A stretch of DNA of 64,000 nt, taken from positions 1 to 64,000 of the forward strand of contig JBBRUX010000015.1 in NCBI GenBank assembly GCA_038247415.1, written 5' to 3'. Of this stretch, positions 11,361 to 41,609 are shown in pieces (the stretch's first letter is position 1; each line of letters begins with the position of its first letter). Made by a program: the position numbers and the translations under genes. This DNA comes from Chitinivibrionales bacterium (GTDB taxonomy: Bacteria; Fibrobacterota; Chitinivibrionia; Chitinivibrionales; WJKA01). The notes below the pieces were generated by a model. The model was not told where the DNA came from. It saw only the letters and a list, made by a program, of their open reading frames with translations, and searched no databases.

Positions 11361-12094
11361 GCACTGCACAAGCGTTTGTTCGGATATTTTTATTACTAGC
11401 GTTTGCAGCGTCATGTTTGTGTATCACGAAAGCCCACTCGTATCCTCCCACATTATCCGCTCCAGTCACAATTTCCTCTAAGCTTGTTGCAAAAAAAGTT
11501 GATGGCTTGTATGTTCCCGCGATAGCACTTTCGTGGGCCCCTCCATCAGATACTGCTAATGCTGTGTCAACCTATAGCATTGAAAGAGCGATACTTGATA
11601 CGGCGCCTCTTAATTTTCAGATTGTGCAATCAGCAATACCGGATACTACGCTTCATTTTGAAGACCCTCTTAGTGCACGTGAATATCCTTTGCGAGGTGC
11701 TAAAAAGGTGCTGTATCGGGTATTTGCTTTCGATACTCTCGGTAGGCCATCAGATACATCAAGAATCGATACTTTTTATATGGCATTACCAGCACAATGG
11801 GACACACAAGCAGACACCCTCCAATCAGACACTATTTCCTGGAAAATGTTTGGATTATCAATACCGTATCGATCATGTTTTTTTGTATGGAATGATTCGG
11901 GATTATCCTTTCAAGGAGCGTGGTCGGAGTTTAAGTATGCCGGTGAATTTGAAACAGTGTTGTTTTTTGGCATACTGCCCGATTCTGTTATTGTAAAAAA
12001 ACCTGCACGACTATTTCTTGGCGCCTGGATAAAAACATATTCAGGCGATTATCGAGAATCACTTGTCATAAGGGCAGTGCATGTGCGTTCGTAA
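11357..12094 (+). CDS. Exported hypothetical protein with an FN3-like beta-sandwich
   Basis: GTG overlapping the ruvX stop; signal peptide; LSWAPPSD..YSIER..FED..YRVFAFD FN3 pattern. Confidence 0.65.
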   Translation: MSTAQAFVRIFLLLAFAASCLCITKAHSYPPTLSAPVTISSKLVAKKVDGLYVPAIALSWAPPSDTANAVSTYSIERAILDTAPLNFQIVQSAIPDTTLHFEDPLSAREYPLRGAKKVLYRVFAFDTLGRPSDTSRIDTFYMALPAQWDTQADTLQSDTISWKMFGLSIPYRSCFFVWNDSGLSFQGAWSEFKYAGEFETVLFFGILPDSVIVKKPARLFLGAWIKTYSGDYRESLVIRAVHVRS

Positions 12095-19832: not shown

Positions 19833-19876
19833 ATCTTTGTGTTGTAAAGCTTTTCACTGTTTTGCGAGGAGTATTC

Positions 19877-24640: not shown

Positions 24641-24644
24641 TACC

Positions 24645-26060: not shown

Positions 26061-27094
26061 AAGTAATTCGCCTCGTGTTTATGGCTTTCTTGTGTGGTGC
26101 AGCCACAACGTTTGCAACAACCAAGATCCTTTTTTTGCCGTTTGATGATCGTGTCAAATTGAAGGATACCTGGGTATTGGGTGTTGATGTTCCTCGATAT
26201 TTTAGCACCATGGTAGATACCATTGGTTCTTACGGCAAATACGATTCGAGCCTTGCAATTGTTCCGTTTGATAGCGTTTTAAATTGTATCAAATCCAATT
26301 CTTGGAGCCGCGTAGAGTATACTTCTCCTTTATACATAGTAAAGTTGGCCCATCGATTTAAGGCCGATTATGTTATCAATGGAACCGTAGCCGTATTCAA
26401 GGTTGTAAAGCGTGCAGTCAATACAACTGCCCCCTTATACGGAGGTGCCGATCTTTCGTCGGTTGTTAAAAATACCACTGGGGGCGGGGGTATTACGGTC
26501 ATGGGCGGTCTTCAATCATATACCGCTACAGCCGTTATGGGACTCGACCTGCTCGATGGCAGTACAGGTCAGGCTCTTTTTCAAATTCCTCTTAATACAA
26601 GCGAAAAAGATGGTGGATTTAAAATTTATGCTACGTTTCAGTCCAATAATCCCGAGATGGATTATTACGAAATGAGTACTACGCCTTTTGGATCGCCTTC
26701 GTTTCAAAGAAGTGTGCCCGGTATCGTAATGAAAACGTTTTCGCAGGATATTCAAAACAAGGTGTGCCTTTATAAACCTGTCGAGAAACAACCCAAGCAA
26801 ACAGACCGCAGTTATAGCGTGGGAAGCGTCTTGGAAAGATCCGGTAGCGACGTGTACATTAATTTTGGTAGCGCAGACAATGTAATGCAAGGCGAAGAAA
26901 TAGAGGTGCAACGCCCAGATCATGCCATCATCGTGGCTGGCGATACGCTTGGATGGTCGGATAAGACCGTAGGAGTTATTCGAGTCCGCTTTATTAAATC
27001 ACCTCACTTGTCACAAGCAAGCATAGTTTCAGAGGTAGATTCTATCCGCTCTGGCGATGCAATACGCTTTGTAATGGTGCCATCTTCCCGATAA
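26057..27094 (+). CDS. Exported hypothetical protein (CsgG/TolB-N-like alpha/beta domain plus FlgT-C-like domain)
   Basis: TTGA overlap and RBS AAGGAG; signal peptide; KILFLPFDD..KADYVINGTV; VYINFGSADNVMQGEEIEV. Confidence 0.6.
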   Translation: MKVIRLVFMAFLCGAATTFATTKILFLPFDDRVKLKDTWVLGVDVPRYFSTMVDTIGSYGKYDSSLAIVPFDSVLNCIKSNSWSRVEYTSPLYIVKLAHRFKADYVINGTVAVFKVVKRAVNTTAPLYGGADLSSVVKNTTGGGGITVMGGLQSYTATAVMGLDLLDGSTGQALFQIPLNTSEKDGGFKIYATFQSNNPEMDYYEMSTTPFGSPSFQRSVPGIVMKTFSQDIQNKVCLYKPVEKQPKQTDRSYSVGSVLERSGSDVYINFGSADNVMQGEEIEVQRPDHAIIVAGDTLGWSDKTVGVIRVRFIKSPHLSQASIVSEVDSIRSGDAIRFVMVPSSR

Positions 27095-27397
27095 ACCCCC
27101 AATTGTGCGCCTTATTCTAGTAGGCGCATGTTGAAATTTGCATTCAACGATTTGTCAAACCCTGTGCAGCTTTCTACAAATTTCTAAGTATATTATAACG
27201 TAGAATCTCGATGTGAAAGCAGTTGGCGCCCTTACTAAATTGTCAATGCTCATAGTAGGTTTTAATATAAGACCGCTGTTGGGGTTGGTTTTGTCGAGAA
27301 AAATATATATTTTCTCATACGATTAAATTCCATGGGTAGAGGCTATCTGATTCCTATTGGATATTATTGTACTTGAAGCGTTCAAGGAGCTAGCCAC

Positions 27398-30300
27398 ATG
27401 AATCGCACGTTATCTATTCTTACTCTGAGCATTATTCTTACAATAGTAGGAAGCAGCGCTCAATCGCTTACCGATAAGCTTTCGGAATCGAATAACTTCT
27501 ATTCGAACTACGGTAAAGAACCCTACGCTAAGCTCAAGATCGAGAAAGATGTTATTGGCCTCTACGACCAATTTGGAGAGCATATCACCGATGGTATATT
27601 TATTTATGACTTGCATAATAGCGATTATAATATTCACAAAACACGCGATCGAACAATACCGGACTCATTAGCTTTCTCTCGAAGCAGCGAATTCCAAAAG
27701 AGCGATTTCTTTGATAAATTTTCAAATTTAGTGGTGACCCAAGATGCTATTGGTGGTACCAAATCATCTTTCATCCTTGGCGACCAAATTCAAACCCGTT
27801 TTACTCCATTGACATTTAATAAAGTAAATTTTAAAGGTGTTCGCTGGGATATTTGGTCGAGCAATCTCCAATTTACTGGGTTGTTATCTAGAACGAGCCC
27901 TGGCGCCTTGGCGAAAAAAAGCACAGATGCGATTTCTTTAGTTGAATACCCTTCGACAACCGAAAGCTTCCCTTATAATTATTATAATATCCAGGGTGAT
28001 CAGGGTCCTGGAGGAATCAATGGTCAAAATGATTTTTCTTCTAAATCGCCTTTTGGCGATTATAATTGGTTATGGGCTTTGCATGCACAACAAAATATTG
28101 CGAATAAGGTAGATGTTGGATTAACCTATATCAATCATCATGTTTCAGATACCAAAAAAGGTGAAAAGTGGTTTGAGGGAGATTTGCCCGAGGGTTGGAT
28201 GCCACGGGAAATTCATTTTGAATTTTTTGATGCAACGCCTCTCGATTCAAATGATGCTGGTGCCTATGTTAATGATGTTACAATGTATATCAATGGTAGC
28301 CTTGTTACATCTCGTTCTGGATACAAAAATAGAAATGTCTATGTTGGTGTTCCCGACTCTACGTTGTTGCCTAAGGAATTGCCATTATCAAGGCCGCAAT
28401 CAGGAAATATTCCTGTAATAGTTACTTTTAATACCGATCCTCAAACCTGGAAGTTTACAGACGGGAAACAGTCGCTAAAATCGGAAAGAGAAATTAAAGA
28501 AATTAACTTTAAATACATAGTAGCTGGTCAATATACTGTTTTCGTTTCCACGAGTAAGCAGATACCTCTGGGAATTCAGGGAACCAGCGATCCGCAAACA
28601 GGCGAAATTGTATATCAAAATATCGATAAAAGTGTAGAAGATATTTATAATGGGGATCAAAATTCTCCCATTAAAATTAGTGCAGGTACAACTTCCATGG
28701 GAGCTATTGGACCTAGATTTATTAACAGTCATTCAACCACCTATTTCGGCTCGTATATTCGTCAGTCTGCAAAACAATTACCCTGGACCTACGAGCAATT
28801 TAAAGACGCAATACTCCAACCCGGGTTTGTAGATAATCCTACCTCAGTAGATAAGTATAATCTTGGCAAGTACGAATACAAATTTGGATCCAATATTTCC
28901 TCTATAACGTATGGTGTAGATTTTAAAGGTGAAATTGGGGGCGTAAACTTTAAAGGGGAATTTGCCTGGAATAAGAAAAAAGACAAATTTCCTGGTGGAG
29001 ATGTTATCGATTCAATCGGTGATTTTGGTAGAAATAATCGCTGGGTGGGTACCCTCAAATTAGATAAGAATCTTACGCCTAAAATGACTATTGCTTCCGA
29101 TCTGTATTACATTTCTCCAGATTGGAAAACAAATCTCGATTTACTTCAAGCGAGTAGGTATTTCAAGGAAACTAATTACAAACAGTTTATCTCAATCAAT
29201 CCCGATTATGCAGGAGGGTCGCTTCCAGACTATCTTTCCTATCCAAAACCATTTAATGCTGGATGGAACAATATCGACGATAATGATGATAACGATTATT
29301 ACCCAGAAAATGATGTGCGCAGGTATCCTGCAGATCAGAGTGCCGATGCACAGGGAGCCTTTTATACAGACGGAAAAATTAAAGGTTCTTTACAAAAATT
29401 AGTGCGACTGCCTTCAAACATGTATATCCCCTATGATGACATTGATGGTGTTGTTGCATCAAAAAGCGATAGAAATCGAAACGGGGTTCCCGATTACTTA
29501 GAAGATTTTCTGCTTTTTAGCTCTGATCCTTCTGTGTTTGAAATGGGAAACGATTTAAATCATAATAGCATTCCCGATGATCAGGACGATGATCTACAAC
29601 CAGATTATGGGCACCCAGTGGGGTCTGAAATTACAGCAGATGGAATCAAGACTACCGGTATTAAAGGCATTCGATTGAATACAAAATGGACTCTTTCTAA
29701 TAACCTAACAGTAGATGCGGGGCTTGTTGGTGAGTCTATACTGGATTACGATCTTGATGGGATATCAGACGCGTTTCAGTCTGTTAAAGTTGACCATGGA
29801 GATTTCTTTGATAAAAAATCCTTTGAATTATACAATCTGATTTCTTTTCAGGCTGTCAAACGTACCGAAGGTATAATGTATCAGCTCGGCAATGAGTTTA
29901 GAGCAACAAAGGATGTTATTCGAGATGATGTCATTAGATCCCGTGGTTTGAATGGCAACGGAAAATATATTGTTGATTACGAGTTTTATATCGATCCTCT
30001 CGATTATCGGCAAGCAATTACAGATAACATTGTGGGTAGTGTTACCTATACTAATATTAAAAATTTTTACTATGGCATTCGTGCAAAAATTGGCTTGCAA
30101 GGAAGAATAGGCATTCCTGATCGACAATTTAGTCGTCCCTATAGCTTTTATGATAACTATTCTGGAAATACTATTTTTGCGGCAGTTCAGGATTCGTATC
30201 CCACCCGATTTCTTACCGATTTGTATCTCTCCAATAAAGTGAGCTATAACTTTAATTTTAAAATCGACGAAGACGATTGGCGAAAGTCGTTCATGTTCCT

Positions 30301-30841
30301 TAATAATCTTGAGATTATTCCTCAATATAAAATTCTTGTATATAATTCTCGTGAAATGTATGGGCCAAATTCAGGAGGAGATCCTTCGAATTTGAATGTA
30401 AACCTGAGGTATGATGCCAATCGAGATCTTCTGATTGATAGTCTTGATGATAAATCAGATCTAAATAATACTACCAATGCGCGTCAAGCCCGAGTTGCAT
30501 CAGAAAAATTTCGCAACGCAAATTTCACTCGAGTTTCAAATGTCCCTATTGTGCGGATAAATTATAAGATTGCAGAAAATACCCAGCTTCAATTTGGTGT
30601 TCAAGGGTATCAATTTCTCGATTTTGTTACGCCAAATAATAATGTTTTTTCTTGGACTTGGCTTGGGCAGGTCGTTGCTAAATCGAGTTATAAAGGATAC
30701 AATGTCACAATTTTTCTCGGCGCTCGACAAAAGGATGTGTATTATAATGCAAATGCATATGATCCCGTATTACAAACGGGCCAACCATTTCTCAGTCTGA
30801 AAAACTCTGAATTCTTTGTTCAAGTTTTCTCCGGAAGTTAA
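27398..30841 (+). CDS. Large exported, probable outer-membrane beta-barrel protein with Ca-binding-type Dx[DN]xDG repeats
   Basis: Signal peptide; many amphipathic beta-strands (YGVDFKGEIGGVNFKGEFAW, QLQFGVQG, FFVQVFSG); DRNRNGVPD, DLNHNSIPD, DYDLDGISD, DDNDDND; RBS AAGGAG. Confidence 0.7.
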   Translation: MNRTLSILTLSIILTIVGSSAQSLTDKLSESNNFYSNYGKEPYAKLKIEKDVIGLYDQFGEHITDGIFIYDLHNSDYNIHKTRDRTIPDSLAFSRSSEFQKSDFFDKFSNLVVTQDAIGGTKSSFILGDQIQTRFTPLTFNKVNFKGVRWDIWSSNLQFTGLLSRTSPGALAKKSTDAISLVEYPSTTESFPYNYYNIQGDQGPGGINGQNDFSSKSPFGDYNWLWALHAQQNIANKVDVGLTYINHHVSDTKKGEKWFEGDLPEGWMPREIHFEFFDATPLDSNDAGAYVNDVTMYINGSLVTSRSGYKNRNVYVGVPDSTLLPKELPLSRPQSGNIPVIVTFNTDPQTWKFTDGKQSLKSEREIKEINFKYIVAGQYTVFVSTSKQIPLGIQGTSDPQTGEIVYQNIDKSVEDIYNGDQNSPIKISAGTTSMGAIGPRFINSHSTTYFGSYIRQSAKQLPWTYEQFKDAILQPGFVDNPTSVDKYNLGKYEYKFGSNISSITYGVDFKGEIGGVNFKGEFAWNKKKDKFPGGDVIDSIGDFGRNNRWVGTLKLDKNLTPKMTIASDLYYISPDWKTNLDLLQASRYFKETNYKQFISINPDYAGGSLPDYLSYPKPFNAGWNNIDDNDDNDYYPENDVRRYPADQSADAQGAFYTDGKIKGSLQKLVRLPSNMYIPYDDIDGVVASKSDRNRNGVPDYLEDFLLFSSDPSVFEMGNDLNHNSIPDDQDDDLQPDYGHPVGSEITADGIKTTGIKGIRLNTKWTLSNNLTVDAGLVGESILDYDLDGISDAFQSVKVDHGDFFDKKSFELYNLISFQAVKRTEGIMYQLGNEFRATKDVIRDDVIRSRGLNGNGKYIVDYEFYIDPLDYRQAITDNIVGSVTYTNIKNFYYGIRAKIGLQGRIGIPDRQFSRPYSFYDNYSGNTIFAAVQDSYPTRFLTDLYLSNKVSYNFNFKIDEDDWRKSFMFLNNLEIIPQYKILVYNSREMYGPNSGGDPSNLNVNLRYDANRDLLIDSLDDKSDLNNTTNARQARVASEKFRNANFTRVSNVPIVRINYKIAENTQLQFGVQGYQFLDFVTPNNNVFSWTWLGQVVAKSSYKGYNVTIFLGARQKDVYYNANAYDPVLQTGQPFLSLKNSEFFVQVFSGS

Positions 30842-30864
30842 GCGACGATTAAAGAGGAGCTACT

Positions 30865-31383
30865 ATGAAAAATTTAAAGTGTCAAGCGTATTGCGTTGGG
30901 CTCATTGCTGTTATTATGGTGTCGTTATGCAGCGCACGAGATGGCGGAATTGTTATTGGTTCGGTGGCTTTTCCAGGTATGGGACAGCTCTCCAATGGGC
31001 AAACTGCTAAAGGACTTTCCATTATGGCATCCGAAGCGTTGCTTATTAGTTTAACATTTAATCAAATGGCAACCATGAATGCATCCGAATACGAAACCAA
31101 GTATCGCAAAATTGAATTTGAGCGAGGTGGGTCGTATACCGATGTAAACGAAACATTTGCACTATGGCAAGATGCATATAACCGAACAAATAAAGCAAAG
31201 GTTAATACGTGGGTTTTTGGAGGGTTGTCGGTTGGTTTGTGGGTGCTAAATATTGCCGATGCTTTCTTTTTTCAAAAAGAAACTGCAGACGTTGAAACGT
31301 CGTTATTGCATACCCTTCGAAAAAATATGCAACTTTCTGCAACAACTCAAGGTGCAACCTTAAATTATACAGTACAGTTTTAA
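30865..31383 (+). CDS. DUF5683-like membrane protein
   Basis: SVAFPGMGQL..KG hairpin; second hydrophobic WVLNIADAF; C-terminal LNYTVQF. Confidence 0.65.
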   Translation: MKNLKCQAYCVGLIAVIMVSLCSARDGGIVIGSVAFPGMGQLSNGQTAKGLSIMASEALLISLTFNQMATMNASEYETKYRKIEFERGGSYTDVNETFALWQDAYNRTNKAKVNTWVFGGLSVGLWVLNIADAFFFQKETADVETSLLHTLRKNMQLSATTQGATLNYTVQF

Positions 31384-31408
31384 TGTTAAAATATCAGAGG
31401 ATAAAGCT

Positions 31409-33523
31409 ATGAAAAACTTTTTATTATTTGGGCTGTGTGTTTGTCTTCTCATAGTATCGTGCGTAAATCCTATTGCGGTTGGTGAGAAGCTTGCCCCCAA
31501 TGAAGTACAAAATGTTAAGGTGAATTTTGACGCAGGACGTAATCAGGTACTGGTCACCTGGGATAAACTTCCAAATGATCAAGTAAGTTTTTATCAAATA
31601 TATCGGATAACGCTCGATAGCCTAGATCCTTCAATTGAATATCAAAATTGGCTTCCAACTGAACGTAGAGCTGCAATAAATAAAGATAGTAGCAGTTTTT
31701 GGGATGTGTTGGGCCTAAGCAATACAATTTACTGTTATGGAGTACGGGCTGCTGTAATATCTTTACGATATAATGGCTATGCTGATACCTCATATGGATT
31801 AATGAAAGCATCGGATTTAAAGCAAATTCCGGTTGGTGCTGACATTGGATTTAGCATAAATAATAACGCTTTGTTTACATCAGATGATCATGTGAAATTA
31901 GTAAATATTGATCCTGATTCCAGGCTTAAAAGTGTTAGATACACCAATAGTATTCACACTTTTTTGCGAAATAAGATTTCAGGAAATAAAGTAGAAGTTA
32001 ACTTTAGTGATCCAAAAAATCCTCCAGACACAAATTTCCTCAAGCAATTAGTTCCTACCTTTATTAAGGATTATACTTATACTCTTTTGACTGCAGATGT
32101 TGAAATGGTTGATATTCCCGATTTTGACGCTCCAGATTCCCTAAATATTGTTAAAAGTCAAGATCCGCCATTTGATGAGCAGCATAATTTTTTATGGCGA
32201 CTTAAGCATGGCAATGGTGATAAAAAAGTGTATGTAGAAAGAGCCTACAAAACAGATCTTCAAGGCAAAACGCAAAAAACCGATACTGTGGTTGATGATA
32301 TTAAAATTGCGCCCTATAGAATAAAAATGGACATTCGCAATCAAACCTCAGGCGCGAATATCACAATGCGTAAAGTAATTCAGACAGCGAGCGGGAATAT
32401 AGATTTATATGTGTATAAGCCATTTATCAATTTCTCTGTTTCGATTTTTGCAGATACTACTATCGAGCAAGATTTCTCATATTGGATTGCTATTGGTGAT
32501 AGTTCCCAAGGGCCCTTGGATGGCAAGGCAGCACAATTTCTTGAGACTGCTCCTCGCTTTGCAAAATTGACAGGTTTGGGCGCGACCCATGATGATGATA
32601 AGGTATATAGCTACTCGTTTGATCCTTCTAATGCCGAGGGAAAAGTCAATTTATCTCAATTGATTAAGACCTTAGGTAGGGGGCCGAATATTCCGGAAAT
32701 TGATGGAGGTCAGCTACCACCTTTGTTTAAACTTCGTGGTTCGAGCACACGGCTCAACGAAACTGCAGTTCCTGGCTCATATTATGGAAAAAATCCGCAG
32801 CGGTTGGTAGGAACAACGTTATCCGGGAGCCAATTAACAATATCTGGTACCCCGAATGAGCTGTATAATCGCATTTTAAATATGAGCAAAACGCAACGCT
32901 TTGTCTATGGGCAAAAAGAGGTTATAGTGTTTGCCAGATTTGTTGGAAAAAAATTTGGGGATACTCGTATGTGTACAATTGGATCTACTTTATCTGGCGA
33001 CCCGCTTCAAAAGCTTACTAAAACGCGTTTTGATTTATATGCGCCCGCAGTACTTTTTAATACAGATGTCACTTCAAGTACGACTCTTAATAATGCGTCT
33101 TTGCCAATAACTGCGCCATTTGTATTTGCATTGCAAGGATCAGGCGGGGTTAGAGATGGCGGTGCTGCTAATGTAGTAGGAATAGACTTAATCATATCAA
33201 AAGTTGACGATCAACTTAATTGGGTAACGCCAGTATATACGCCTCTTCCTCCAGGTACTATTCCTCCTATAATATTCGCAGACACGATATCGGTCGATTA
33301 TTTATTGGCTCAACGTCATAGTGTGTTCCCATTTCCTATAAAAACAATTTCAGCAAATATCGCTGGAGTGCAATGGAAACTTGATCCTTCCGATTGGCCA
33401 AGCGGCAGGTATCTTATGGCTGTTGTTACAAAAGATCAGTTTGGAAATACAGGACTCGCGCCAGCAACTTCAACAGCGCTTTTTTCAAATCCTTGGCTTG
33501 TTACGGTTCAAACGGGGAAATAA
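31409..33523 (+). CDS. Large lipoprotein with an N-terminal FN3-like domain
   Basis: Lipobox LIVSC; VLVTWD..FYQIYR..FWD..YCYGVRA; C-terminal Ig-like GRYLMAVVTKDQFGN. Confidence 0.75.
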   Translation: MKNFLLFGLCVCLLIVSCVNPIAVGEKLAPNEVQNVKVNFDAGRNQVLVTWDKLPNDQVSFYQIYRITLDSLDPSIEYQNWLPTERRAAINKDSSSFWDVLGLSNTIYCYGVRAAVISLRYNGYADTSYGLMKASDLKQIPVGADIGFSINNNALFTSDDHVKLVNIDPDSRLKSVRYTNSIHTFLRNKISGNKVEVNFSDPKNPPDTNFLKQLVPTFIKDYTYTLLTADVEMVDIPDFDAPDSLNIVKSQDPPFDEQHNFLWRLKHGNGDKKVYVERAYKTDLQGKTQKTDTVVDDIKIAPYRIKMDIRNQTSGANITMRKVIQTASGNIDLYVYKPFINFSVSIFADTTIEQDFSYWIAIGDSSQGPLDGKAAQFLETAPRFAKLTGLGATHDDDKVYSYSFDPSNAEGKVNLSQLIKTLGRGPNIPEIDGGQLPPLFKLRGSSTRLNETAVPGSYYGKNPQRLVGTTLSGSQLTISGTPNELYNRILNMSKTQRFVYGQKEVIVFARFVGKKFGDTRMCTIGSTLSGDPLQKLTKTRFDLYAPAVLFNTDVTSSTTLNNASLPITAPFVFALQGSGGVRDGGAANVVGIDLIISKVDDQLNWVTPVYTPLPPGTIPPIIFADTISVDYLLAQRHSVFPFPIKTISANIAGVQWKLDPSDWPSGRYLMAVVTKDQFGNTGLAPATSTALFSNPWLVTVQTGK

Positions 33524-33554
33524 TCATTTTTCTTTTAGTAGGCATTAAATTGTA

Positions 33555-36500
33555 ATGGGCATACTTATCAATATTATAGCGGTTGGCATAGCCGCATTGT
33601 TTCTTTCAATTCCGGTATTGAATAAGAATGTTTTTCATACGGTAAATATTGATAAAGTTATTGCCGAGGGCAAAGATGGTATTTCGGCAATTCAGGATCG
33701 ATTTGGCAAATCGGAATACGATTCTTCACGGGCGCGTGCCGATTATTTGATCGATCTTTTCCGCAGCGATTCGATCGTTTTTTTTACCCCCGATATCATA
33801 CAGTGGGATTCCGTTTACGCCCTCTATAATAAACCAGAATCTGATTTTGGCGCTACTATTCTCAAACTTCGGCTTAATGACGAAGATATTGATACCATGA
33901 AAGTCCGATGCGAAGCTATGGCTTTGCAAAGTAGTCCTTCCAAATCCGATTCGATTCGGGTTACTAAAAAGAAGATTCCCCCTTCATCAATTTTCGCCCT
34001 TAAAATTGTTAAAGTTCTTAATGTCCTTAAGGATAATCTTGGTTTTTATGTTGAGAATGCAGAACGTCTTGAAATAAGCAAGCATAAAGATCTGCGTGCA
34101 AAATTAGATGATTTGCTTGCAAAAGGTATACTTATAAAACTTTCGGATTCTTATACTATTAAAAAGAATATGACGGTTGTTGAGCTTGTCGCTCTTAAAA
34201 AATTTCACGGATTAATTCTCGAAAAAGTAGTTTTCCCGCGTTGGCTTTATAAAGATTTATTGAGAAATCGTGATTGGGCAAGTGAGTACATTGTACAAAC
34301 TGCCATGTATTTTGTTGGTGCGAGTTATTACGCTCAACAGGATTACGAAAAAGCAATCGAACAATACGATCTGCTTATAGAACAATATCCCAAAACGATA
34401 TATGCCGAAAATCTCTTTTTGCAAATTGGTCGATTGTTAACGACCCAGGGAACAGAGAGTATTTCAAAGGGTAAAAACACTGAAGCAATGGAACTTTTGC
34501 ATCGTGCAATTCGCTATCTCGAAAAAATAGAGCGCAACCGAGAAATAGCTCGTGATTTTCCCAAGTATCGAAATACAGAACTTAACCCTGGTGTATATGT
34601 CAATATCGATGAAGCATCTAAAGCCAAGCGCAATCTAAAAGAAAAATCAAAAATTTATACGCTCGCCCAAGAAAAAGCAGAACTTGCTCTCGAAGGAAAA
34701 AATGTAGAGAGCGGATCAACTCTCGAAGATGCTATTAAACAGATTGGTCAATGCTATATCCTTCTTGGATCCCCAGACTCTGCGCGGATGCAGTTTAGTT
34801 TGCTTGGACAGTTTTTTCCAGAATCGGATAACCTTGCCGAAGCTCAAAAACTTATTGCAGATTCGTATGTTAAAGAAGGCGATCTGGTTTTTGAAACTAA
34901 AGATAGTAGTAGTGAGTCTAAAAAAATTGCCTTTAATGCCTACGAAAAGGCAGTAAAAGAATATCTTAAATTTGTTAATATATTTTCACAAACTAAGCTT
35001 ATTTCCGATGTGTATATAGCTCTTGGGGACGTTTACAATAAGCTTGGCAAACCTGCCGAGGGCACCAAAGCATTTGCAGCCGCGCTGGATCTTTCTAAAG
35101 AAATCGAGAAAAAAGCAAATGTACAGCTTAAAATAGGAACGTACTATTTCGAGAAAAAACGGTTCGGTGAAGCTATTAAAGCCTATCAGGTAATTCTTAA
35201 TACCTTCATGTCAACAGAGGTTGCAGCAAATGCGCAGTATCTTTTAGGCGATTGCTACATTTCTCTTTCCGATACTACTAAGGCAATCGAAGCCTATAAG
35301 AGCGTTGTTGCTAATTTTAAAAAGTCTTCTTACTTTGCAGGTTCTGCAAAAAAAGTAGCCGACTGGAACTTTGCTCGCAAAAATTACAAAGAAGCTCTCC
35401 ATTACTATCTTAATGGTTATGTATACGATCAGAATGGCCCCCTCGCAGCACAATGTTTATTACAGGCGGGGCTTGTATGGGTTGCAATGGCGCAAGAGAG
35501 TACTGGCGAAGACCAGAAACAAAATTATGCCGAAGCGATAAAGCAATTCAATAAAATTATTGAAAATCCAGAATTTGTCAATATGCGTGAGTCTGATCAG
35601 GCCCGCTATCAACTCACCGAATGCTATGTTTTGCTAGGTAATCCCGATGCTGCTAAAAAAGCAAGCAAAGATATAAAAAGTCGTGATATTATTATTGCAT
35701 CTATAAAATTGATTGGTGTGGATGTAGATAATCCCGAAAAGGAGCTCGAGTACTGGGAAGGGCTTTATAAAGATGCCGTAGAAGATGAAGAACGGGCTTC
35801 GGTATTGTACGATAAAGCAATGATATTGCTTGACAAATTAAAAAGGCTTGACGAAGCAATGGCCGTATTTCGGCAAATTATTGGATATACTAAAGATGAA
35901 ACTAAAAACCTTAATGCTCGTATAGGAATTTCCAGAACGTTTATTGCTCAGAAATCGTACGCAGATGCAGAAACGACCATAGTCAATATTCTTAAAAACA
36001 CAAAATTGCAACCAGAATTAGCTAAACAGCTCCAGGTTCAATTGTACGATGTGTACTTTAAGAGTAAAGAATTTGATAAATCCTATGAAGGGTTTGATAA
36101 ATTTGTTACTTTAAATCCACAGCATGTGCTTGCGCCCTATGCTCAGTATCGTGTGGGGCTTATTTTTGCCGAACAAAAAGAAAACCAAAAATCAATTGAC
36201 GCTATGAAAGTTATTCTTTCAACATATGCAACATCGGACTATTTCGATAAAGCATCGTTAAGTATTGGCGACCAGCTTATTGCCATGGGAAAACCATCTG
36301 AGGGTGTAGATTATTTAGAAAAGTATCTTAAGAAACACCCGCTCGATTCTATTCCGTCGGCTCCAAATTTCTATATGAAAATTGCAGAAGGGTATTATAA
36401 AGGTCTTAATAATAAGGAAAAAGCTGCGGCTGCTTATAAGGCATTGCTCGACACATTTCCCGATGATCCTCTGTTTTCATACGCCTCGTATCAATTAGGA

Positions 36501-37406
36501 TCTATTTACAAAGACGAAGGCAAGGACAAAGAAGCAATTTCTACCTATGCGCGGGTTCTTAAAAAAGATGGCCAGATTTATCGCGCTTCACAAGCCGAAA
36601 TTGGAAAAATACTTTCAAAGACCGATCCCGAAGCGGCAATTAAGAATTATCAGGAGATTGTTGCTCAAAGTGAAACTGCGGAAGATAGTGCAATTGCTCT
36701 TATAGGAATTGGCGATGTTTATGTGGGCATGCAAAAATGGGAGTTAGCCGCTGCAACTTTTGAGAATGTTTATACTTTTTATAAAGGTAAAGAAAAGTCG
36801 ATGCTCGTTGGCGCACTTGTTAAATGGACTGATGCGCTTAATAATGCAAAAAAATATAAAGAAGCAATTGCAGCTGCTCAAATAATGCAACAAATGTTTC
36901 CCGATAGTGCATATACCGAAAATACCATGTATTTTGAAGCTGCTGCTTATATGGCGCTTAAAAACTATGCAGACTCACGCAAAGCATTTCAAAAACTTGT
37001 TGCAAGTGGAAAAAACCCAGTTCTTTTAGAAATTGCTTATTTGCAAAAAGCAGACTGTTTGTTTTTTGGCCAGAAAAAAGCTGAGGCGATTAGAGAATAC
37101 GATGAGTATCTTAAGAAATATCCAGAGGGCAAGTACAATGCGCAAGCGCTCTTTATGCAGGGCAATATTTATTGGGCAGATGATAATTTTGCCCTGGCTG
37201 CTAAAAAATTTGGAGATGTTGTAACTAAATATCCTACTTTTGCTGATGTGTGCAGTGCAAAAAATTATTATGCCTTTTCTCTTAATAAAATAGACAAGTG
37301 GAAAGATGCATTAAAAGTATATGGCGATGTTATTAAGGGAAATTGTGGGGCAGACCCGGTTAAATTTGCGCGGGAACATGCCGAATCTATAAAAACAGCT
37401 CATTAA
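33555..37406 (+). CDS. 1283-aa TPR-repeat protein with an N-terminal membrane anchor (CpoB/BamD-type TPRs)
   Basis: N-terminal hydrophobic helix; repeated motifs such as AQYLLGDCY, AQYRVGLIF, EYLKKYPEGKYNAQALFMQG. Confidence 0.88.
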   Translation: MGILINIIAVGIAALFLSIPVLNKNVFHTVNIDKVIAEGKDGISAIQDRFGKSEYDSSRARADYLIDLFRSDSIVFFTPDIIQWDSVYALYNKPESDFGATILKLRLNDEDIDTMKVRCEAMALQSSPSKSDSIRVTKKKIPPSSIFALKIVKVLNVLKDNLGFYVENAERLEISKHKDLRAKLDDLLAKGILIKLSDSYTIKKNMTVVELVALKKFHGLILEKVVFPRWLYKDLLRNRDWASEYIVQTAMYFVGASYYAQQDYEKAIEQYDLLIEQYPKTIYAENLFLQIGRLLTTQGTESISKGKNTEAMELLHRAIRYLEKIERNREIARDFPKYRNTELNPGVYVNIDEASKAKRNLKEKSKIYTLAQEKAELALEGKNVESGSTLEDAIKQIGQCYILLGSPDSARMQFSLLGQFFPESDNLAEAQKLIADSYVKEGDLVFETKDSSSESKKIAFNAYEKAVKEYLKFVNIFSQTKLISDVYIALGDVYNKLGKPAEGTKAFAAALDLSKEIEKKANVQLKIGTYYFEKKRFGEAIKAYQVILNTFMSTEVAANAQYLLGDCYISLSDTTKAIEAYKSVVANFKKSSYFAGSAKKVADWNFARKNYKEALHYYLNGYVYDQNGPLAAQCLLQAGLVWVAMAQESTGEDQKQNYAEAIKQFNKIIENPEFVNMRESDQARYQLTECYVLLGNPDAAKKASKDIKSRDIIIASIKLIGVDVDNPEKELEYWEGLYKDAVEDEERASVLYDKAMILLDKLKRLDEAMAVFRQIIGYTKDETKNLNARIGISRTFIAQKSYADAETTIVNILKNTKLQPELAKQLQVQLYDVYFKSKEFDKSYEGFDKFVTLNPQHVLAPYAQYRVGLIFAEQKENQKSIDAMKVILSTYATSDYFDKASLSIGDQLIAMGKPSEGVDYLEKYLKKHPLDSIPSAPNFYMKIAEGYYKGLNNKEKAAAAYKALLDTFPDDPLFSYASYQLGSIYKDEGKDKEAISTYARVLKKDGQIYRASQAEIGKILSKTDPEAAIKNYQEIVAQSETAEDSAIALIGIGDVYVGMQKWELAAATFENVYTFYKGKEKSMLVGALVKWTDALNNAKKYKEAIAAAQIMQQMFPDSAYTENTMYFEAAAYMALKNYADSRKAFQKLVASGKNPVLLEIAYLQKADCLFFGQKKAEAIREYDEYLKKYPEGKYNAQALFMQGNIYWADDNFALAAKKFGDVVTKYPTFADVCSAKNYYAFSLNKIDKWKDALKVYGDVIKGNCGADPVKFAREHAESIKTAH

Positions 37407-37433
37407 TAGTAAAACTTTTGTCAAGGAGCAGGT

Positions 37434-38114
37434 ATGACGGCTGGTGGAAAACTTAATCTTGTGGAGCTCTTTATTGCCGGTGGCTGGGTTATGTACCCAA
37501 TTGCCTTACTATCGGTAGTCATGATGGCAATTACACTTGAACGGCTTATTGTCATTTTTCTTGAAAAATGGAAATTTGCCCCTTCAAATGCTATTAAAAT
37601 TTTTGCTGCGGCTCTGGATAAACACGGAAATGATAAAGTAAAAGCAATTGATGAGATTACTCCTGTTCTCAAAAAGAAGGGAACTATTCTCTCGGAAATT
37701 CTTTTAACCATTATAGAAAAATATCATTATGCAAAAGATAAAAATTTAAGTCCAATGGAGATGAAATCGTGGCTTAAAAATGCTACTGAGGAAAAAGCTG
37801 GTGTTGAATTACCCGCGCTCGATGCACACTTAGGATGGCTTGCTATTATTTCAAACGTTGCAACATTGGTTGGGTTGTTTGGAACGGTTATTGGTATGAT
37901 CGAATCTTTTACTGCTATGTCTAATTCTGCTGGTGGTGTTAAGGCCGATGAAATGGCAGGTGGTATTGCCGTTGCGCTTGTTGCTACCGCCGGCGGATTG
38001 GTTGTTGCTGTTCCTTCTCTCCTTATTTTTAACTGGCTTAAAAACACCGCAGAAGCGCATGTTATACAAATAGAAGAAACAACCGTAAAAGTTATAGATA
38101 CTTTAGCAGAATAA
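37434..38114 (+). CDS. MotA/TolQ/ExbB proton-channel protein
   Basis: GGWVMYPI..ERL; ATLVGLFGTVIGMIESF; GGIAVALVATAGGLVVAVP. Confidence 0.93.
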   Translation: MTAGGKLNLVELFIAGGWVMYPIALLSVVMMAITLERLIVIFLEKWKFAPSNAIKIFAAALDKHGNDKVKAIDEITPVLKKKGTILSEILLTIIEKYHYAKDKNLSPMEMKSWLKNATEEKAGVELPALDAHLGWLAIISNVATLVGLFGTVIGMIESFTAMSNSAGGVKADEMAGGIAVALVATAGGLVVAVPSLLIFNWLKNTAEAHVIQIEETTVKVIDTLAE

Positions 38115-38135
38115 TAGAGCTGAGTTAGAAGAGCT

Positions 38136-38930
38136 ATGGGCTTTAAAAAAACTAAATTAAAAGCTGAGTCGAATATCAATCTAACCTCTATGATTGATGT
38201 AACAAGCTTTATTTTGCTCGCGCTTGCGATTCTTAATATTTCAATGAAAAAGGAAGCTTCGCTCGATAACCTTTTAAAGTTGCCGCCTGTCTATAATGCA
38301 TCTAAGCAAGATAAGTCTCAATTACAAATTTATATCATGCCTGCTTCTATCTTGCCGGGTGGGTATATAAATCCCGACTCGACAGGGCTTGTTGCATTTG
38401 TTGGGAAAGGAAAAGCCCCCGATAAATGTCCTCAATGTGGGCTGCAGCTACGCAATGAAAAAGGTGAATATCTGGCTCATTCACTCCTAGATCGCTTTAA
38501 AAAACCAATACCTTCAATGGAACCCTCATCTTCTGCCGAAGATCAGGATAAAGTATTAAATGAGCTACCACCTGCATATTGGTGCAGCAAGTGCAATTTT
38601 GAGATTAGTCCATACCTCAAGCTCGAGCAAATTCCCCAAGCATTGCACGATAAGAAAAAAGAGGTTGTGGATATAGAGGTTAAAGCGCGTAACTATTCGC
38701 GGCTTAAAAATAATTTACAGCCCTTAACAGAAAAAGAAATCAAAGATTCTATAGCCGACGATATCCCACTAATGATCAAGGCTGATAACCAGGCGTTTTA
38801 TGGTCGAATATTGCAGGTTGTAAATATGGCAAAAGATACGCTGTGTGATATTAAAAAATTTGCATTTGTGACGTTGGCATCTGCATCAAAAGAAGCTCAG
38901 AAAAAACCCGACGAAAAGAAAAAGAAATAG
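38136..38930 (+). CDS. ExbD/TolR-family protein with a long Cys4-containing insertion
   Basis: INLTSMIDV (conserved TM Asp21); C-terminal LMIKADNQAFYGRILQVVNMAK; insertion CPQC...CSKC. Confidence 0.85.
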   Translation: MGFKKTKLKAESNINLTSMIDVTSFILLALAILNISMKKEASLDNLLKLPPVYNASKQDKSQLQIYIMPASILPGGYINPDSTGLVAFVGKGKAPDKCPQCGLQLRNEKGEYLAHSLLDRFKKPIPSMEPSSSAEDQDKVLNELPPAYWCSKCNFEISPYLKLEQIPQALHDKKKEVVDIEVKARNYSRLKNNLQPLTEKEIKDSIADDIPLMIKADNQAFYGRILQVVNMAKDTLCDIKKFAFVTLASASKEAQKKPDEKKKK

Positions 38931-38940
38931 GCATAGTGTT

Positions 38941-39444
38941 ATGAAAATAAAAACCGATATGGAAGCAGATGTTAATATCACCGCGCTTATCGATTGTCTC
39001 ATGCAGTGCATCATTTTCTTTATGGTTATTATGTCGGCTCAGTATGTGTATGGTGTTGCAATTAAGTTTCCTCCTCCGGGTGCTGCAAAGGCAAAATCTG
39101 AGCAGAAACAAGAAAAAAATATTGTTGTGTATGTACAATCCGACGTTTTAGATCGCGCTGCAGATGGCAGCCATTACGTTCGGCAAGATGGCGTGGTCAA
39201 GCTCAATGGGGAAGAAATTGCACTGGCCGTTTCGGGCAATAGGACAAACTGGGAAAACGAACGCAAACGGGGCTTTGACGAATTAAAGTTTAAAATGGAT
39301 CAACGGCTTAAAGAGGGTTATAAAAATGATATTCTCCTTATACAGGGAGATATGAAAACGTACCATGGAAAAATCATGCATGTTATTGATATTGCCAAAG
39401 ATCTTAAAATTGATGGATTCTCTTTAGTACCTCCACAATCCTGA
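38941..39444 (+). CDS. ExbD/TolR-family protein
   Basis: VNITALIDCL..IFFMV (TM Asp18); LLIQGDMKTYHGKIMHVIDIAK. Confidence 0.88.
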   Translation: MKIKTDMEADVNITALIDCLMQCIIFFMVIMSAQYVYGVAIKFPPPGAAKAKSEQKQEKNIVVYVQSDVLDRAADGSHYVRQDGVVKLNGEEIALAVSGNRTNWENERKRGFDELKFKMDQRLKEGYKNDILLIQGDMKTYHGKIMHVIDIAKDLKIDGFSLVPPQS

Positions 39445-39481: not shown

Positions 39482-39509
39482 AAAGCGGAATCTTCTCCGC
39501 TTTTTTTTT
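39482..39509 (+). terminator. Rho-independent terminator closing the motor operon
   Basis: AAAGCGGA-atcttc-TCCGCTTT followed by a long T-run. Confidence 0.8.
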
Positions 39510-39560: not shown

Positions 39561-41570
39561 ATGCTTAATTCATCCCGCACTGTATCTTCGTCTCATATAA
39601 CCAGCAAAGTTTCCAAACCGTGGGTTATCAAGAAACTTGCCCTTATCATTATAAGCCTAGTGCTTATTGCAGGGATTATTTGGGTTGTTATTCCAATGCA
39701 AAAGGCCGTGCATGACTTTCAACAGTCGGTTATTTTTGATGCGCATAAACTTGTTCGTTTACACGAGGTGAGTCGAGTTTATACGATTGAGAAAGATCCT
39801 TTTGATACAACCATGCTGTGGTTTGGTACCGCAGAAGGAATCCATGTTCTTAATACCACTACATTCGAATGGCGCAGAATCGGACTTGATCACGGATTAC
39901 CTTCCGAAAAGGTAACGGGATTTTGTTTTACTAGCGACAGAGTCTGGATTTCAACCCTTGGGGGAATGTGTTCTCTAAAACGAGGCGCTAATCTCGTTGA
40001 TAGCTGCAAAAGCGCTCAAAAAAGTCCTTCGCGAATAGTAGCGTTAGTAAATATTCCAGGAATTGGCGTTGTTGGTTCTGCGCAAGGCGAAGGGCTCTTT
40101 GTAGTGAGATCTCCCGACAGTGTTCCGCAACCATTTAAAGTATCAGATGGCATCGATTGTGTAACCGTCACCTCACTTCGCATGATATCGGGGAGCCTCT
40201 TTGTTGGAACTAATGCGGGCATTCTGGTTTCGTATGATATTGCTTCGGGAAAAGTTACCAAAATTCCATGCCCGGGCTCTGTTTCAAAATCGTCTACAAT
40301 ATGGGATGTGCTACAAAGGCCAGAGGGTCTCTATATTGCAACATCAGATGCTGGGGTGTATGTTAAAAAGACCGGGTGTGACACAGCCTATGAAGATAAA
40401 AGTTTTCCTTGTAAAGGGGCTTTTTGTTTTTCGAATGAGGAAGATGGCTTTTTTTGCGCTACTCCGTATGGATTGTGGCGTTATCACGCTGCAAATACTA
40501 TTTGGCTTCAGTTTGTAAATCCTGCACAGCAATCTCCAACCGATTTTTCTATTACCTCTCTTGTTTCGAGTGGAGATTTGCTCTGGTATGGCGTACTTGA
40601 TGGAAAAAGTGGCTATCTTACTAAAACACGCGTAACGTGGCAACCATTGCGGGCAGGATTGTCGCATCCCAATGTTGCTGCTCTAGCAGTTGACGATTCG
40701 GTTATGTGGACGTCGTACGGGTATCAAAGCGGATTTCTTGATAGATTTTCTTCGAACACGTTGCAGTACCATCATAATTATGGGCTTGCATCGGGTATTT
40801 CCGATCCAACCATTCAAACCTTATTTGCATCTCATGGGGTGTTGTTTTACGGCGGATTCGAATCGTTTGGTTGGATTGCTCCAGACGTTGGCACCGGTCG
40901 GCATTATACCCTGGAAAACGGGCTTCCTCATGCCGATATTGCAGCAATTGTGCCAGAGAGCAGAACAACTCTTTTATTAGCAAGCAGTAGTGGAATTCTT
41001 CGATATGTCACAATTAATGAAACATTCGAGATCCTTAAGGAAAGTGGCATTGATAGAACAACGTGCATGGCTCTTAGCGATACAACGCTCTGGTACGGAA
41101 CTCTTGCTGGTGGAGTGAAGCAGTATGATATAAGACATCAAAAGATAGTGGCAACGTACGGAGAGAATGTATCCCGAATTATGGGGATTTTTATGCTTGA
41201 CGAAAACAATCTTTTTGTAGTAACAAAAACCAACGGATGTTATACTATAAACAGCGCATTAAAAAGGTGGAATGAAGTTGCTATTCCCAAAGCACTGTAT
41301 GGGACCTCTATGGCGGATGACCCTAATAATTGCATGTGCGCCCGGCAGATTGATGGAAGGATGTATCTTGGAACACGCGATCATGGATGCTTTGTGTATA
41401 CACCCTCAACAAAACACTGGAATACCATTTCGTTTTTTGATGGTTTAGTTACCGATCAGATCAGATCGTTTGACTCAGATTCTGTAAATATCTATATTGG
41501 TGGATACGGGGGAGTTACTAAAATTCCCAAGCAGTATATAGATAGTTTGTTTTTAGCTCAAAAAAAGTAA
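39561..41570 (+). CDS. Membrane-anchored double beta-propeller protein (Reg_prop-like repeats)
   Basis: N-terminal TM; repeats LWFGTAEG, DHGLPSEKV, ENGLPHADI, LWYGTLAGG, FDGLVTDQI. Confidence 0.8.
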   Translation: MLNSSRTVSSSHITSKVSKPWVIKKLALIIISLVLIAGIIWVVIPMQKAVHDFQQSVIFDAHKLVRLHEVSRVYTIEKDPFDTTMLWFGTAEGIHVLNTTTFEWRRIGLDHGLPSEKVTGFCFTSDRVWISTLGGMCSLKRGANLVDSCKSAQKSPSRIVALVNIPGIGVVGSAQGEGLFVVRSPDSVPQPFKVSDGIDCVTVTSLRMISGSLFVGTNAGILVSYDIASGKVTKIPCPGSVSKSSTIWDVLQRPEGLYIATSDAGVYVKKTGCDTAYEDKSFPCKGAFCFSNEEDGFFCATPYGLWRYHAANTIWLQFVNPAQQSPTDFSITSLVSSGDLLWYGVLDGKSGYLTKTRVTWQPLRAGLSHPNVAALAVDDSVMWTSYGYQSGFLDRFSSNTLQYHHNYGLASGISDPTIQTLFASHGVLFYGGFESFGWIAPDVGTGRHYTLENGLPHADIAAIVPESRTTLLLASSSGILRYVTINETFEILKESGIDRTTCMALSDTTLWYGTLAGGVKQYDIRHQKIVATYGENVSRIMGIFMLDENNLFVVTKTNGCYTINSALKRWNEVAIPKALYGTSMADDPNNCMCARQIDGRMYLGTRDHGCFVYTPSTKHWNTISFFDGLVTDQIRSFDSDSVNIYIGGYGGVTKIPKQYIDSLFLAQKK

Positions 41571-41609
41571 GCCTTGACAACAATTAATGATCGAGTAGGA
41601 GGTAGTGCT

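Follow-up and report, generated by a model that had tools for sequence, protein, structure and literature searches.

The stretch of DNA analysed here, 64,000 nucleotides from the contig of a Chitinivibrionales bacterium (phylum Fibrobacterota) and hereafter called the window, carries seven open reading frames (ORFs) that lie on the plus strand between positions 27398 and 39444 in the ORF read-out. To judge from their layout, these genes (g1 to g7) form a genuine seven-gene operon that joins an ExbB/ExbD motor to a giant outer-membrane barrel and a large tetratricopeptide-repeat (TPR) protein. The features of the operon are as follows.

27095-27397, plus strand: intergenic leader ahead of g1, 303 nt.
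27398-30841, plus strand: g1, 1147 aa, outer-membrane protein with a signal peptide.
30865-31383, plus strand: g2, 172 aa, DUF5683-like small membrane protein.
31409-33523, plus strand: g3, 704 aa, beta-rich lipoprotein with the lipobox LIVSC.
33555-37406, plus strand: g4, 1283 aa, TPR protein with one N-terminal hydrophobic helix.
37434-38114, plus strand: g5, 226 aa, ExbB/TolQ-family proton-channel subunit.
38136-38930, plus strand: g6, 264 aa, long ExbD/TolR-like subunit.
38941-39444, plus strand: g7, 167 aa, ExbD/TolR-like subunit.
39482-39509, plus strand: terminator-like hairpin and T-run, 8-bp stem with 4 G-C pairs followed by T9, 38 nt past the g7 stop.

The gaps between the genes, from g1 to g7, are 23, 25, 31, 27, 21 and 10 nt, in agreement with an earlier note on this DNA that had described seven closely spaced, co-oriented genes behind a long leader. 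The leader matches no Rfam family at the gathering score, the window-wide Rfam scan having returned one tRNA only, and it holds a promoter-like site at 27240-27268 from a scan whose number of sites is not above that in shuffled sequence. The terminator scan overall gave 18 sites versus 16.5 in shuffled sequence; because this total is likewise not above shuffled, we keep the terminator that the note had seen solely on its position and the quality of its stem and T9. The note had also remarked that the block is AT-rich, and the G+C content of the operon is indeed 38.4% versus 43.7% for the genome, a value equally low in only 0.5% of 975 genome windows of 12 kb. The conserved flanking genes u1, g8 and g9, described further below, have 41-44% G+C. 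PADLOC found no defence-system match among the seven proteins and gave generic TPR matches for g9 only.

The three distal genes encode the motor. MotA_ExbB (PF01618) is matched by g5 at 1.8e-28 and ExbD (PF02472) by g7 at 1.3e-13; g6 matches ExbD at 3.9e-09 over residues 11-68 only and has a weak TolR match over residues 172-235. Both ExbD/TolR-like proteins keep the membrane aspartate that the earlier note had called essential. In g6 it is D21 ('MIDV'), kept in six operon-type g6 sequences and replaced by Asn in the paralogue on contig C6, and in g7 it is D18 ('LIDC'), invariant in all 10 sequences of the alignment, among them members from Ignavibacteriota, Zixibacteria and a Lentisphaeria-labelled locus. 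The length of g6 comes with an insert of ~100 aa between the membrane helix and the C-terminal domain and with two CxxC motifs; in the alignment, the insert and the Cys pairs are found in the closest relatives only. None of g5-g7 reaches the NCBIfam equivalog cut-off for TolQ, ExbB, TolR or ExbD: g5 scores 82 bits on TolQ (cut-off 221) and 61.7 bits on ExbB (cut-off 206), and the ExbD-like pair scores 36.1 and 20.1 bits on TolR (cut-off 127.3). The equivalog models that fit g5 and g7 best are those of TolQ and TolR.

At the proximal end of the operon, g1 falls outside every Pfam and NCBIfam family at thresholds as loose as E 5, and a Pfam scan of 10 distant or partial representatives of its family gave no match either. 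The family alignment used as input for AlphaFold2 contained 23 sequences with 31-54% identity to the query. The resulting model (predicted local distance difference test score, pLDDT, 67.7; predicted TM-score, pTM, 0.70) has ~31 long strands in its DSSP string, arranged as 8 (residues 66-250), 6 (450-572) and 17 (755-1146). The best-predicted part of the model is an inserted beta-sandwich at approximately residues 265-410, and an Asp-rich segment at approximately residues 595-740 is poorly predicted. The fold searches brought up large outer-membrane barrels in a generic way only. Foldseek placed MtrB first (E 1e-10, target TM 0.36), with SlpA, LptD and TonB-dependent receptors at TM 0.2-0.3. 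A Foldseek-independent search (VIA) put the 30-strand barrel of Deinococcus SlpA, from the S-layer deinoxanthin-binding complex (7zgx_A), on top with Z 14.9, 429 aligned residues and a root-mean-square deviation (rmsd) of 8.6, followed by ordinary porins (Z 11-13) and SprA (Z 9.9), with TM-scores that are all low. When solved structures were searched with a profile made from g1 and its relatives, nothing meaningful came up, the best match being a designed scaffold at E 0.52. The model contains no plug-like N-terminal domain, and the protein has no match to PF00593 or PF07715. Because it lacks both a plug domain and the signature of a TonB-dependent receptor, g1 models as a giant plug-less outer-membrane barrel of ~30 strands that belongs to an undescribed family. 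It is thus not the ordinary TonB-dependent receptor that the earlier note had named as the finding that would count against its view of the locus.

Among 1.84 billion representatives, a profile of the g1 family finds 329 proteins at E<=1e-3, of which 194 remain at <=1e-10 and 55 at <=1e-30, and the names given to the relatives by their sources are 'hypothetical protein' throughout; in the source genome g1 is single-copy. The first ~45 residues of the mature N-terminus are strongly conserved across phyla, with the mature chain starting Q-F-I in 45 of 85 g1-family ORFs. The same 85 ORFs, some of which are cut by locus ends, terminate in F, Y or W in 55 cases, and the window g1 ends ...FSGS.

The earlier note had called g2 DUF5683-like, and the match to DUF5683 (PF18935) is there at 26.2 bits, just under the gathering cut-off of 26.7. 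A DUF5683 protein of L029, one of the loci from other phyla treated below, lies above the cut-off at 28.6 bits and matches g2 weakly. In Fibrobacterota loci g2 adjoins g1 downstream, and our literature search found no functional study of DUF5683. The window holds a second DUF5683 protein of 467 aa (54606-56009, plus strand), at 31.8 bits above the cut-off.

For g3, the note's lipoprotein call is upheld by the lipobox, and its fibronectin type III (FN3) call is backed by a poor model and by Atlas scores, with no Pfam fn3 domain. No Pfam or NCBIfam family is matched by g3 even at E up to 5. The model, from a 7-row alignment, has pLDDT 55 and pTM 0.36, and Foldseek on it returned generic MG/FN3 domain chains at TM ~0.12; Atlas protein-language features give FN3/Big_7 scores of 0.90-0.92. 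We read g3 as probably a string of Ig/FN3-like domains. Its relatives are 28-36% identical, and a word-based search brought up only one other cluster. The slot that it occupies is fast-evolving: it holds 1-3 genes in relatives, and L130, L132, L133 and L135 fill it with three genes of 755-890 aa in tandem. A Pfam scan of 10 proteins from this slot and a g3 homologue, all from other Fibrobacterota loci, gave no match.

The 1283-residue g4 is, as the note had it, a TPR protein with a potential membrane anchor: it matches 17 TPR-type Pfam families and begins with a hydrophobic helix. NCBIfam recognises YbgF/CpoB-type repeats in it, spread over 8 stretches (TIGR02795, 233 bits), besides repeats of the BamD type and a sub-threshold PorW/SprE match (79 bits versus a cut-off of 250). 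We infer that g4 is an inner-membrane-anchored periplasmic scaffold. Modelled as a complex with g6 and g7, the first 120 residues of g4 scored 0.00 in a run without controls, a value that weighs neither for nor against contact. In line with the earlier note, Pfam and NCBIfam detect no TonB_C, TolA, TolB, Pal, plug domain or TonB-dependent-receptor barrel in any of the seven, and no TonB_C in the flanking proteins either. The note's description of the system as TonB-less holds within the operon and fails for the genome as a whole, which has 11 TonB_C matches and, on contig C4, a further protein of TonB architecture.

The layout of the operon is conserved in related genomes. We searched 296 Fibrobacterota genomes, 172 of them high-quality, with a g1 profile cut-off of E<=1e-5, and found g1 in 23 of the 296 and in 12 of the 172. 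The gene is present in five of the six other genomes of the source's family and is missing from the three largest families (0/151, 0/46 and 0/32), the largest of which is presumably Fibrobacteraceae; close g1 relatives carry Chitinivibrionales names. Twelve Fibrobacterota loci were fetched around g1 matches. Five of these span g1-g7, all five in the window's order, and another five show that order up to the point where their DNA ends; the remaining two consist of one with g1-g2 and a large ORF and one with a lone second g1 copy. A gene order without conservation elsewhere, which the earlier note had also held to count against its view, is therefore not what we see. In one locus (L129:3332-10050), two g1-like ORFs of 350 and 753 aa stand directly upstream of full-length g1 and may be a broken or duplicated copy. 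The ExbB tree (46 rows) places the window ExbB in a clade with the ExbB proteins of other Fibrobacterota g1 loci (support 98/96), and five other ExbB genes of the source genome form a separate clade (100/100).

The core of the cluster also recurs outside the phylum. A pattern scan with one genome per species yielded 608 candidate stretches, of which 235 have g1 relatives, and 79 loci were kept and searched with the window proteins as single phmmer queries (E<=1e-3). The g1 loci come from Ignavibacteriota, Latescibacterota, Zixibacteria, Marinimicrobia/Fidelibacterota, Gemmatimonadaceae and from metagenome-assembled genomes (MAGs) labelled Bacteroidota, Lentisphaeria or Zhuqueibacterota, and the distant relatives are 21-34% identical to the window g1. 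A g4-type TPR gene directly follows g1 in 34 of the 55 loci with at least 4 kb downstream and is in the locus in 49 of the 55; same-strand ExbB is present in 23 of the 51 loci with at least 8 kb downstream. Across all 79 loci we count g4-type genes in 58, ExbB in 32, DUF5683-like genes in 20 and tandem g1 in 7. Three to four tandem or nearby g1-family genes per locus occur in L064, L067, L090, L093 (Latescibacterota) and L076/L077 (Gemmatimonadaceae-labelled). The g4 protein is the reciprocal best match of the TPR gene after g1 in distant phyla, and in L029 both window g1 and window g4 are reciprocal best matches of the corresponding pair. Distant g4 homologues share an N-terminal hydrophobic helix followed by 'FIPSP'.

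Three of these distant loci (L029, L044 and L074) have the order T9SS-tailed discoidin protein (T9SS, type IX secretion system), PorV/PorQ-family barrel (56-84 bits, cut-off 90), g1, TPR protein of ~1040 aa, ExbB, one ExbD and DUF4159. After the DUF4159 gene comes a second DUF4159-like or other gene and GHL10 with a T9SS type A tail, and DUF5683 is found in L029 only. The window has the same succession of g1-family barrel, g4-family TPR and ExbB-ExbD, the layout of a cluster that extends across the Fibrobacterota-Chlorobiota-Bacteroidota (FCB) phyla. Searched with the L029 DUF4159 protein, the g1 loci gave 78 ORFs at E<=1e-10, some of them membrane-anchored with a helix that contains a His and the others of lipoprotein type. 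Pfam scans found no DUF4159 gene in the window, and the only DUF4159-like match of the genome (20.2 bits, cut-off 25.9) lies on contig C4.

C4 121729-123588 (G000:C4:121729-123588; L137:9726-11588), minus strand: candidate coupler, 620-aa ORF.

This protein has a Lys-rich tail, one His-containing membrane helix, an eleven-proline run, a low-complexity linker and a head of ~450 residues. By sequence, it is of TonB architecture with a DUF4159-related head instead of TonB_C, and its gene is a solitary one on the contig. The basic tail, helix and proline tract are common to all 11 fetched orthologues, and the helix His is present in five of 12 sequences of the family, the source genome included. 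Compared with the profile of the distant membrane-anchored DUF4159 proteins, the C4 family gives an hhalign probability of 97.1 (E 5e-11) over the last 87 columns. A search of the same 296 genomes with the C4 protein (E<=1e-10) matched 20 of them: both g1 and the coupler are found in 19 genomes, g1 only in 4, the coupler only in 1 and neither in 272. Three of the four g1-only genomes match only in the Asp-rich segment (E 1e-15 to 1e-18) and the fourth is 77% complete; the coupler-only genome is 91% complete and its match is cut by the contig end. Presence and absence of g1 and coupler agree inside the four mixed families (f3, f7, f9 and f15). A paralogue of the coupler head, 34% identical over 471 residues, is found directly upstream of g1 in two genomes. 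The literature search on DUF4159 found only the Pfam database paper and no functional study.

The source genome contains several other motors, with totals of 8 MotA/ExbB, 11 TonB_C and 12 ExbD matches, the last at 7 loci; none of the TonB_C matches is in the window. Two ExbD genes are present at four of the seven ExbD loci (C1, C15, C35, C6), and a TonB_C-type gene adjoins three of these four, one of them weakly. One locus (C35, L106) reads 538 aa, TPR 1164, TPR 1019, ExbB, ExbD, ExbD, TonB, and another (C6, L107) reads OmpA, TPR-barrel 811, TPR 1244, ExbB, ExbD 268, ExbD 167 and a 456-aa protein with weak TonB_C. The succession of giant TPR, ExbB, ExbD and ExbD is a recurrent module in this genome, and the window copy is the one that is joined to g1 and has no TonB_C gene. 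The earlier note had taken one ExbB with two ExbD subunits, the layout of Myxococcus AglRQS, to set the locus apart from Ton loci. That distinction does not hold, and the argument from AglRQS is weak, because two ExbD genes are found at four of the genome's seven ExbD loci. Motors are many in this genome and receptors few, with only 3 matches to TonB-dependent-receptor barrels.

From these data we propose, with a confidence that we would put midway between doubt and conviction, that FCB phyla share an uncharacterised motor-driven envelope machine which energises a large barrel, and that the operon encodes its Fibrobacterota (Chitinivibrionales-type) form. In such a machine, an ExbB pentamer around an ExbD pair, possibly a g6/g7 heterodimer, would turn proton flow into mechanical work. 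The work would be passed to the outer membrane by the TonB-like protein with its basic tail, membrane helix, polyproline rod and DUF4159-related head, which is encoded right after exbD in other phyla and on the C4 contig in the source genome. The g4 protein may serve as a scaffold that spans the periplasm, and the target of the coupler would be the g1 barrel, perhaps through the conserved N-terminal segment of ~45 residues. A plug-less barrel of this width could not be left open, so g1 would need gating. The most likely role would be the energised passage of a large substrate, polymer or protein, through g1. This coupling path is inferred from architecture, homology and co-occurrence. As to the dedicated energised outer-membrane machine of the earlier note, the conserved, envelope-spanning motor operon stands, and the data do not decide among the uptake, secretion and motility that it had offered.

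By analogy with Sus-type loci we lean slightly to the import of glycan chains. The lean comes from the facts that ExbBD motors mostly serve import, that the distant clusters are Sus-like and that the genome has few classical receptors. What makes the distant clusters Sus-like is a discoidin-domain protein at the surface, an anchor like PorQ and a GHL10 glycosidase-like protein exported by the T9SS. A fuller version of the proposal, tentative and distinctly short of an even chance, is of an undescribed FCB machine driven by the proton-motive force. In it, a DUF4159-headed TonB-like protein would couple ExbB-ExbD to a plug-less barrel across a TPR scaffold, giving a polymer route independent of TonB and SusC; in Fibrobacterota the coupler gene would have split off, and a second ExbD and Ig-like lipoproteins would have been added.

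Several observations weigh against a coupled machine of this kind. The g1 model is of middling confidence, with 308 residues under pLDDT 50, and the closure of the barrel and its strand number are a reading of the secondary-structure string. The N-terminal helix of g4 could be a signal peptide instead of an anchor. Orthology of the window ExbB to the ExbB of the distant clusters is neither upheld nor refuted by the tree (support 50/20), and the motor is not always beside the g1-g4 pair (ExbB in 23/51 distant loci), though in several distant layouts it may lie beyond the fetched flank. The C4 gene is unlinked to g1 in 5/5 genomes checked, being on another contig in four and 35 kb away in one, and its homology to DUF4159 is confined to the final ~87 columns, with a Pfam match below threshold. 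Because related genomes are not independent, the co-occurrence counts overstate the evidence and are suggestive rather than a statistic. An ordinary TonB could serve the motor, given the 11 TonB_C matches in the genome. The glycan-import analogy rests on distant relatives, only 21-30% identical in g1, because the window operon has no PorV/PorQ-like, T9SS-tailed or GHL10 genes. Finally, contacts between the components are predicted from their genes.

Comparison with the Ton system brings out what the proposed machine would share with it and where it would depart. Both have ExbB/ExbD subunits with a membrane Asp, an outer-membrane barrel as target and a coupler with a helix and a proline-rich rod. 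Unlike a Ton locus, the operon is without TonB_C, and the head of the candidate coupler is DUF4159-related; the barrel is plug-less with ~30 strands rather than a plugged receptor of 22 strands, and giant TPR and DUF5683 proteins are integral here. The nearest published idea that we met is a proposed, unexplored motor-driven class of transducers with non-TonB heads of the von Willebrand factor A (vWA) type, beside TPR-tolQ-tolR-tolR genes (PMC12204202). It shares with our case the gene grammar of TPR, tolQ-like, tolR-like and tolR-like genes and a membrane-tethered transducer with a non-TonB head. It differs in that the head here is annotated as DUF4159-related and not as vWA, and in that the transducer is unlinked here; the passages of PMC12204202 at hand name no giant g1-family barrel. 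Within the phylum, PMC6851124 describes FSU_2396-FSU_2403 of F. succinogenes (OmpA, two TPR, ExbB, two ExbD, TonB), up-regulated on cellulose. As in the window, a giant TPR gene stands there directly upstream of ExbB-ExbD-ExbD. That layout mirrors the C35 locus and not the window operon. We considered the operon as an orthologue of this cellulose-induced cluster and rejected the idea, as the C35 locus fits the layout better.

Among the other explanations, the one that survives best is export or surface assembly, which we consider unlikely all the same. Here the TPR protein would be a periplasmic scaffold and the barrel an outer-membrane conduit, like those of synthase-dependent polysaccharide export (BcsC, PgaA, AlgK/AlgE), or the system would help the T9SS to position or shift surface proteins, and the motor would provide the force. 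The TPR-barrel gene pair is the most conserved element (58/79 loci), and the three distant clusters are flanked by T9SS-tailed proteins, a PorV/PorQ-family barrel and GHL10, enzymes like which are common in exopolysaccharide operons. The sub-threshold PorW/SprE match of g4 (79 bits versus 250), a PorU-like C25 peptidase 11 kb upstream in the window and T9SS parts elsewhere in the genome (12 PorV-family matches, none in the window, and SprA on contig C21) point the same way. The distant g1 loci resemble T9SS in having a PorV/PorQ-family gene ahead of g1 and T9SS-tailed proteins on its flanks, with a TPR protein and a 5:2-type motor. They are unlike T9SS in that the motor is ExbBD and not GldLM and g1 falls outside the SprA family, and the window operon itself has no PorV/PorQ-like or T9SS-tailed gene. 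The conserved block also has no glycosyltransferase or synthase, and we know of no ExbBD-type motor in polysaccharide export. With the SprA translocon present on C21, g1 is not needed as a T9SS pore, and we rejected it as a replacement for that pore.

An engine for surface motility or adhesion of the Agl-Glt kind, with the motor driving TPR proteins of the periplasm and adhesin-holding proteins of the outer membrane, is in our view improbable. What the operon has in common with Myxococcus Agl-Glt is one TolQ/ExbB-like and two TolR/ExbD-like subunits, large TPR proteins and outer-membrane barrels, and the T9SS-tailed discoidin protein beside a PorQ/PorV-like anchor in distant loci is adhesin-anchor-like. 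The likeness to Agl-Glt drawn by the earlier note holds for this 1+2 motor layout, the layout being common to Ton-type loci of the source genome (4/7 ExbD loci with two ExbD genes) and so non-discriminating. GltG and GltJ are TonB-like components of Agl-Glt and have no counterpart in the operon. No Glt-specific family reached its cut-off in the NCBIfam scan, in which the Glt families were not searched one by one; GltE (NF033758) is matched only by g9, at 78.4 bits versus 225, a generic TPR similarity, and is not listed for g4. The block also has no cytoplasmic track partner. According to PMC4814513, cultured relatives attach to chitin particles, which would suit such an engine, and a cultured relative swims with a flagellum, which speaks against one although gliding would still be compatible. 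That genome paper on Chitinivibrio and Chitinispirillum (PMC4814513) has no occurrence of TonB or ExbB.

Equally slight are the prospects of a Tol-Pal-type role in envelope integrity, with the motor and a CpoB-like TPR protein tethering or remodelling the outer membrane through an SlpA-like barrel. To its credit are the 233 bits of g4 on the YbgF/CpoB model over 8 repeats, the best equivalog scores of g5 and g7 on TolQ/TolR, and the SlpA barrel, part of an outer-membrane-to-wall connector, as best fold match of g1. The SlpA_C family PF21620 has a precomputed match in 9 of the 120 listed relatives of the Ignavibacteria homologue and weakly in one distant homologue (23.7 bits versus a cut-off of 35), with no match in the window g1. 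The resemblance stops at 8% identity and an rmsd of 8.6 A, and g1 has no coiled-coil stalk and no SLH or OmpA wall-binding domain. Moreover, the distribution of g1 (23/296 genomes) is too patchy for housekeeping. A canonical Tol-Pal-like locus is found on C45 (TolQ-like, TolR 96.6 bits, TonB_C/TolA-like, TolB 319.8 bits and Pal 123.7 bits), and the operon was accordingly rejected as the cell's Tol-Pal.

That the operon is an ordinary extra Ton motor energising classical TonB and receptors, with functionally unrelated large neighbours, fits the 11 TonB_C and 8 MotA/ExbB matches in a world where multiple Ton motors are common, and is very improbable in view of the only 3 receptor barrels, the conserved order and tight spacing of g1-g7, a window ExbB clade that travels with g1 and the recurrence of g1-TPR-ExbB-ExbD in other phyla.

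If the motor-driven machine that we favour is real, its outer-membrane partner and its coupler head are what we rate as new here, both being previously undescribed parts of a motor-driven trans-envelope system. In the literature within our reach, which includes few subscription journals, we found no paper that describes the g1 family, the function of DUF4159 or this cluster. To our knowledge, ExbB/ExbD-type motors are the sole known energy route to the Gram-negative outer membrane, and their understood outputs are few, namely TonB receptors, Tol-Pal and Agl-Glt. Were the cluster a transport route, it would be a new entry among the few energised outer-membrane processes and might explain the uptake of large substrates in organisms whose TonB-dependent receptors are very few. 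Several of the phyla that carry the cluster are dominant in breaking down polymers in sediments and soils. For experiments, cultured relatives with insoluble chitin as their sole growth substrate would be a direct way in, provided that they carry the operon.

The conserved block exceeds the seven genes, with u1 upstream and g8 and g9 downstream travelling with the operon.

26057-27094, plus strand: u1, secreted 345-aa protein, conserved upstream neighbour.
39561-41570, plus strand: g8, N-terminal membrane helix followed by ~620 aa of beta-propeller-type repeats (Reg_prop, WD40-type).
41574-43211, plus strand: g9, 545-aa TPR protein matching 40 TPR-type Pfam families.

The u1 gene stands upstream of g1 in L017-L020, L125-L128 and L136, and precedes g1 in five of the 12 fetched Fibrobacterota loci. 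It has no Pfam match; its Atlas score of 0.95 to the CsgG and FlgT_C clusters, with 198 of 256 features shared, suggests a CsgG/LpoB/FlgT_C-like protein. A u1 homologue is found downstream of the cluster in a Bacteroidota-labelled locus (L071, E 9e-14). The start of g8 was set at 39561 because the ORF listed from 39471 overlaps the terminator. The gene follows g7 in L125, L126, L128, L129 and L136 (5/12 fetched loci), and g9 follows g8 in L125 and L136 (2/12).

Further from the operon, a 526-aa ORF at 24480-26060 was considered as a member of the system and rejected; it is cytoplasmic-looking, follows a gene for a CoA-enzyme activase and is not conserved with g1. A 2-kb stretch of the window (2001-4000) has 58.8% G+C versus a window average of 43.7%, and overlaps an AraC-type regulator gene (3155-4066, minus strand) and an ORF without a Pfam match (1376-2443). 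The gene at 12081-16718 (plus strand), 11 kb upstream of g1, encodes a 1545-aa protein with Peptidase_C25 (3.1e-63) and a C-terminal FlgD_ig-type domain, and from its sequence the product looks like the T9SS sortase PorU. Lastly, a 406-aa protein encoded at 19862-21082 (plus strand) combines TPR repeats with an SLH domain, the wall-binding module of SlpA-type outer-membrane tethers.

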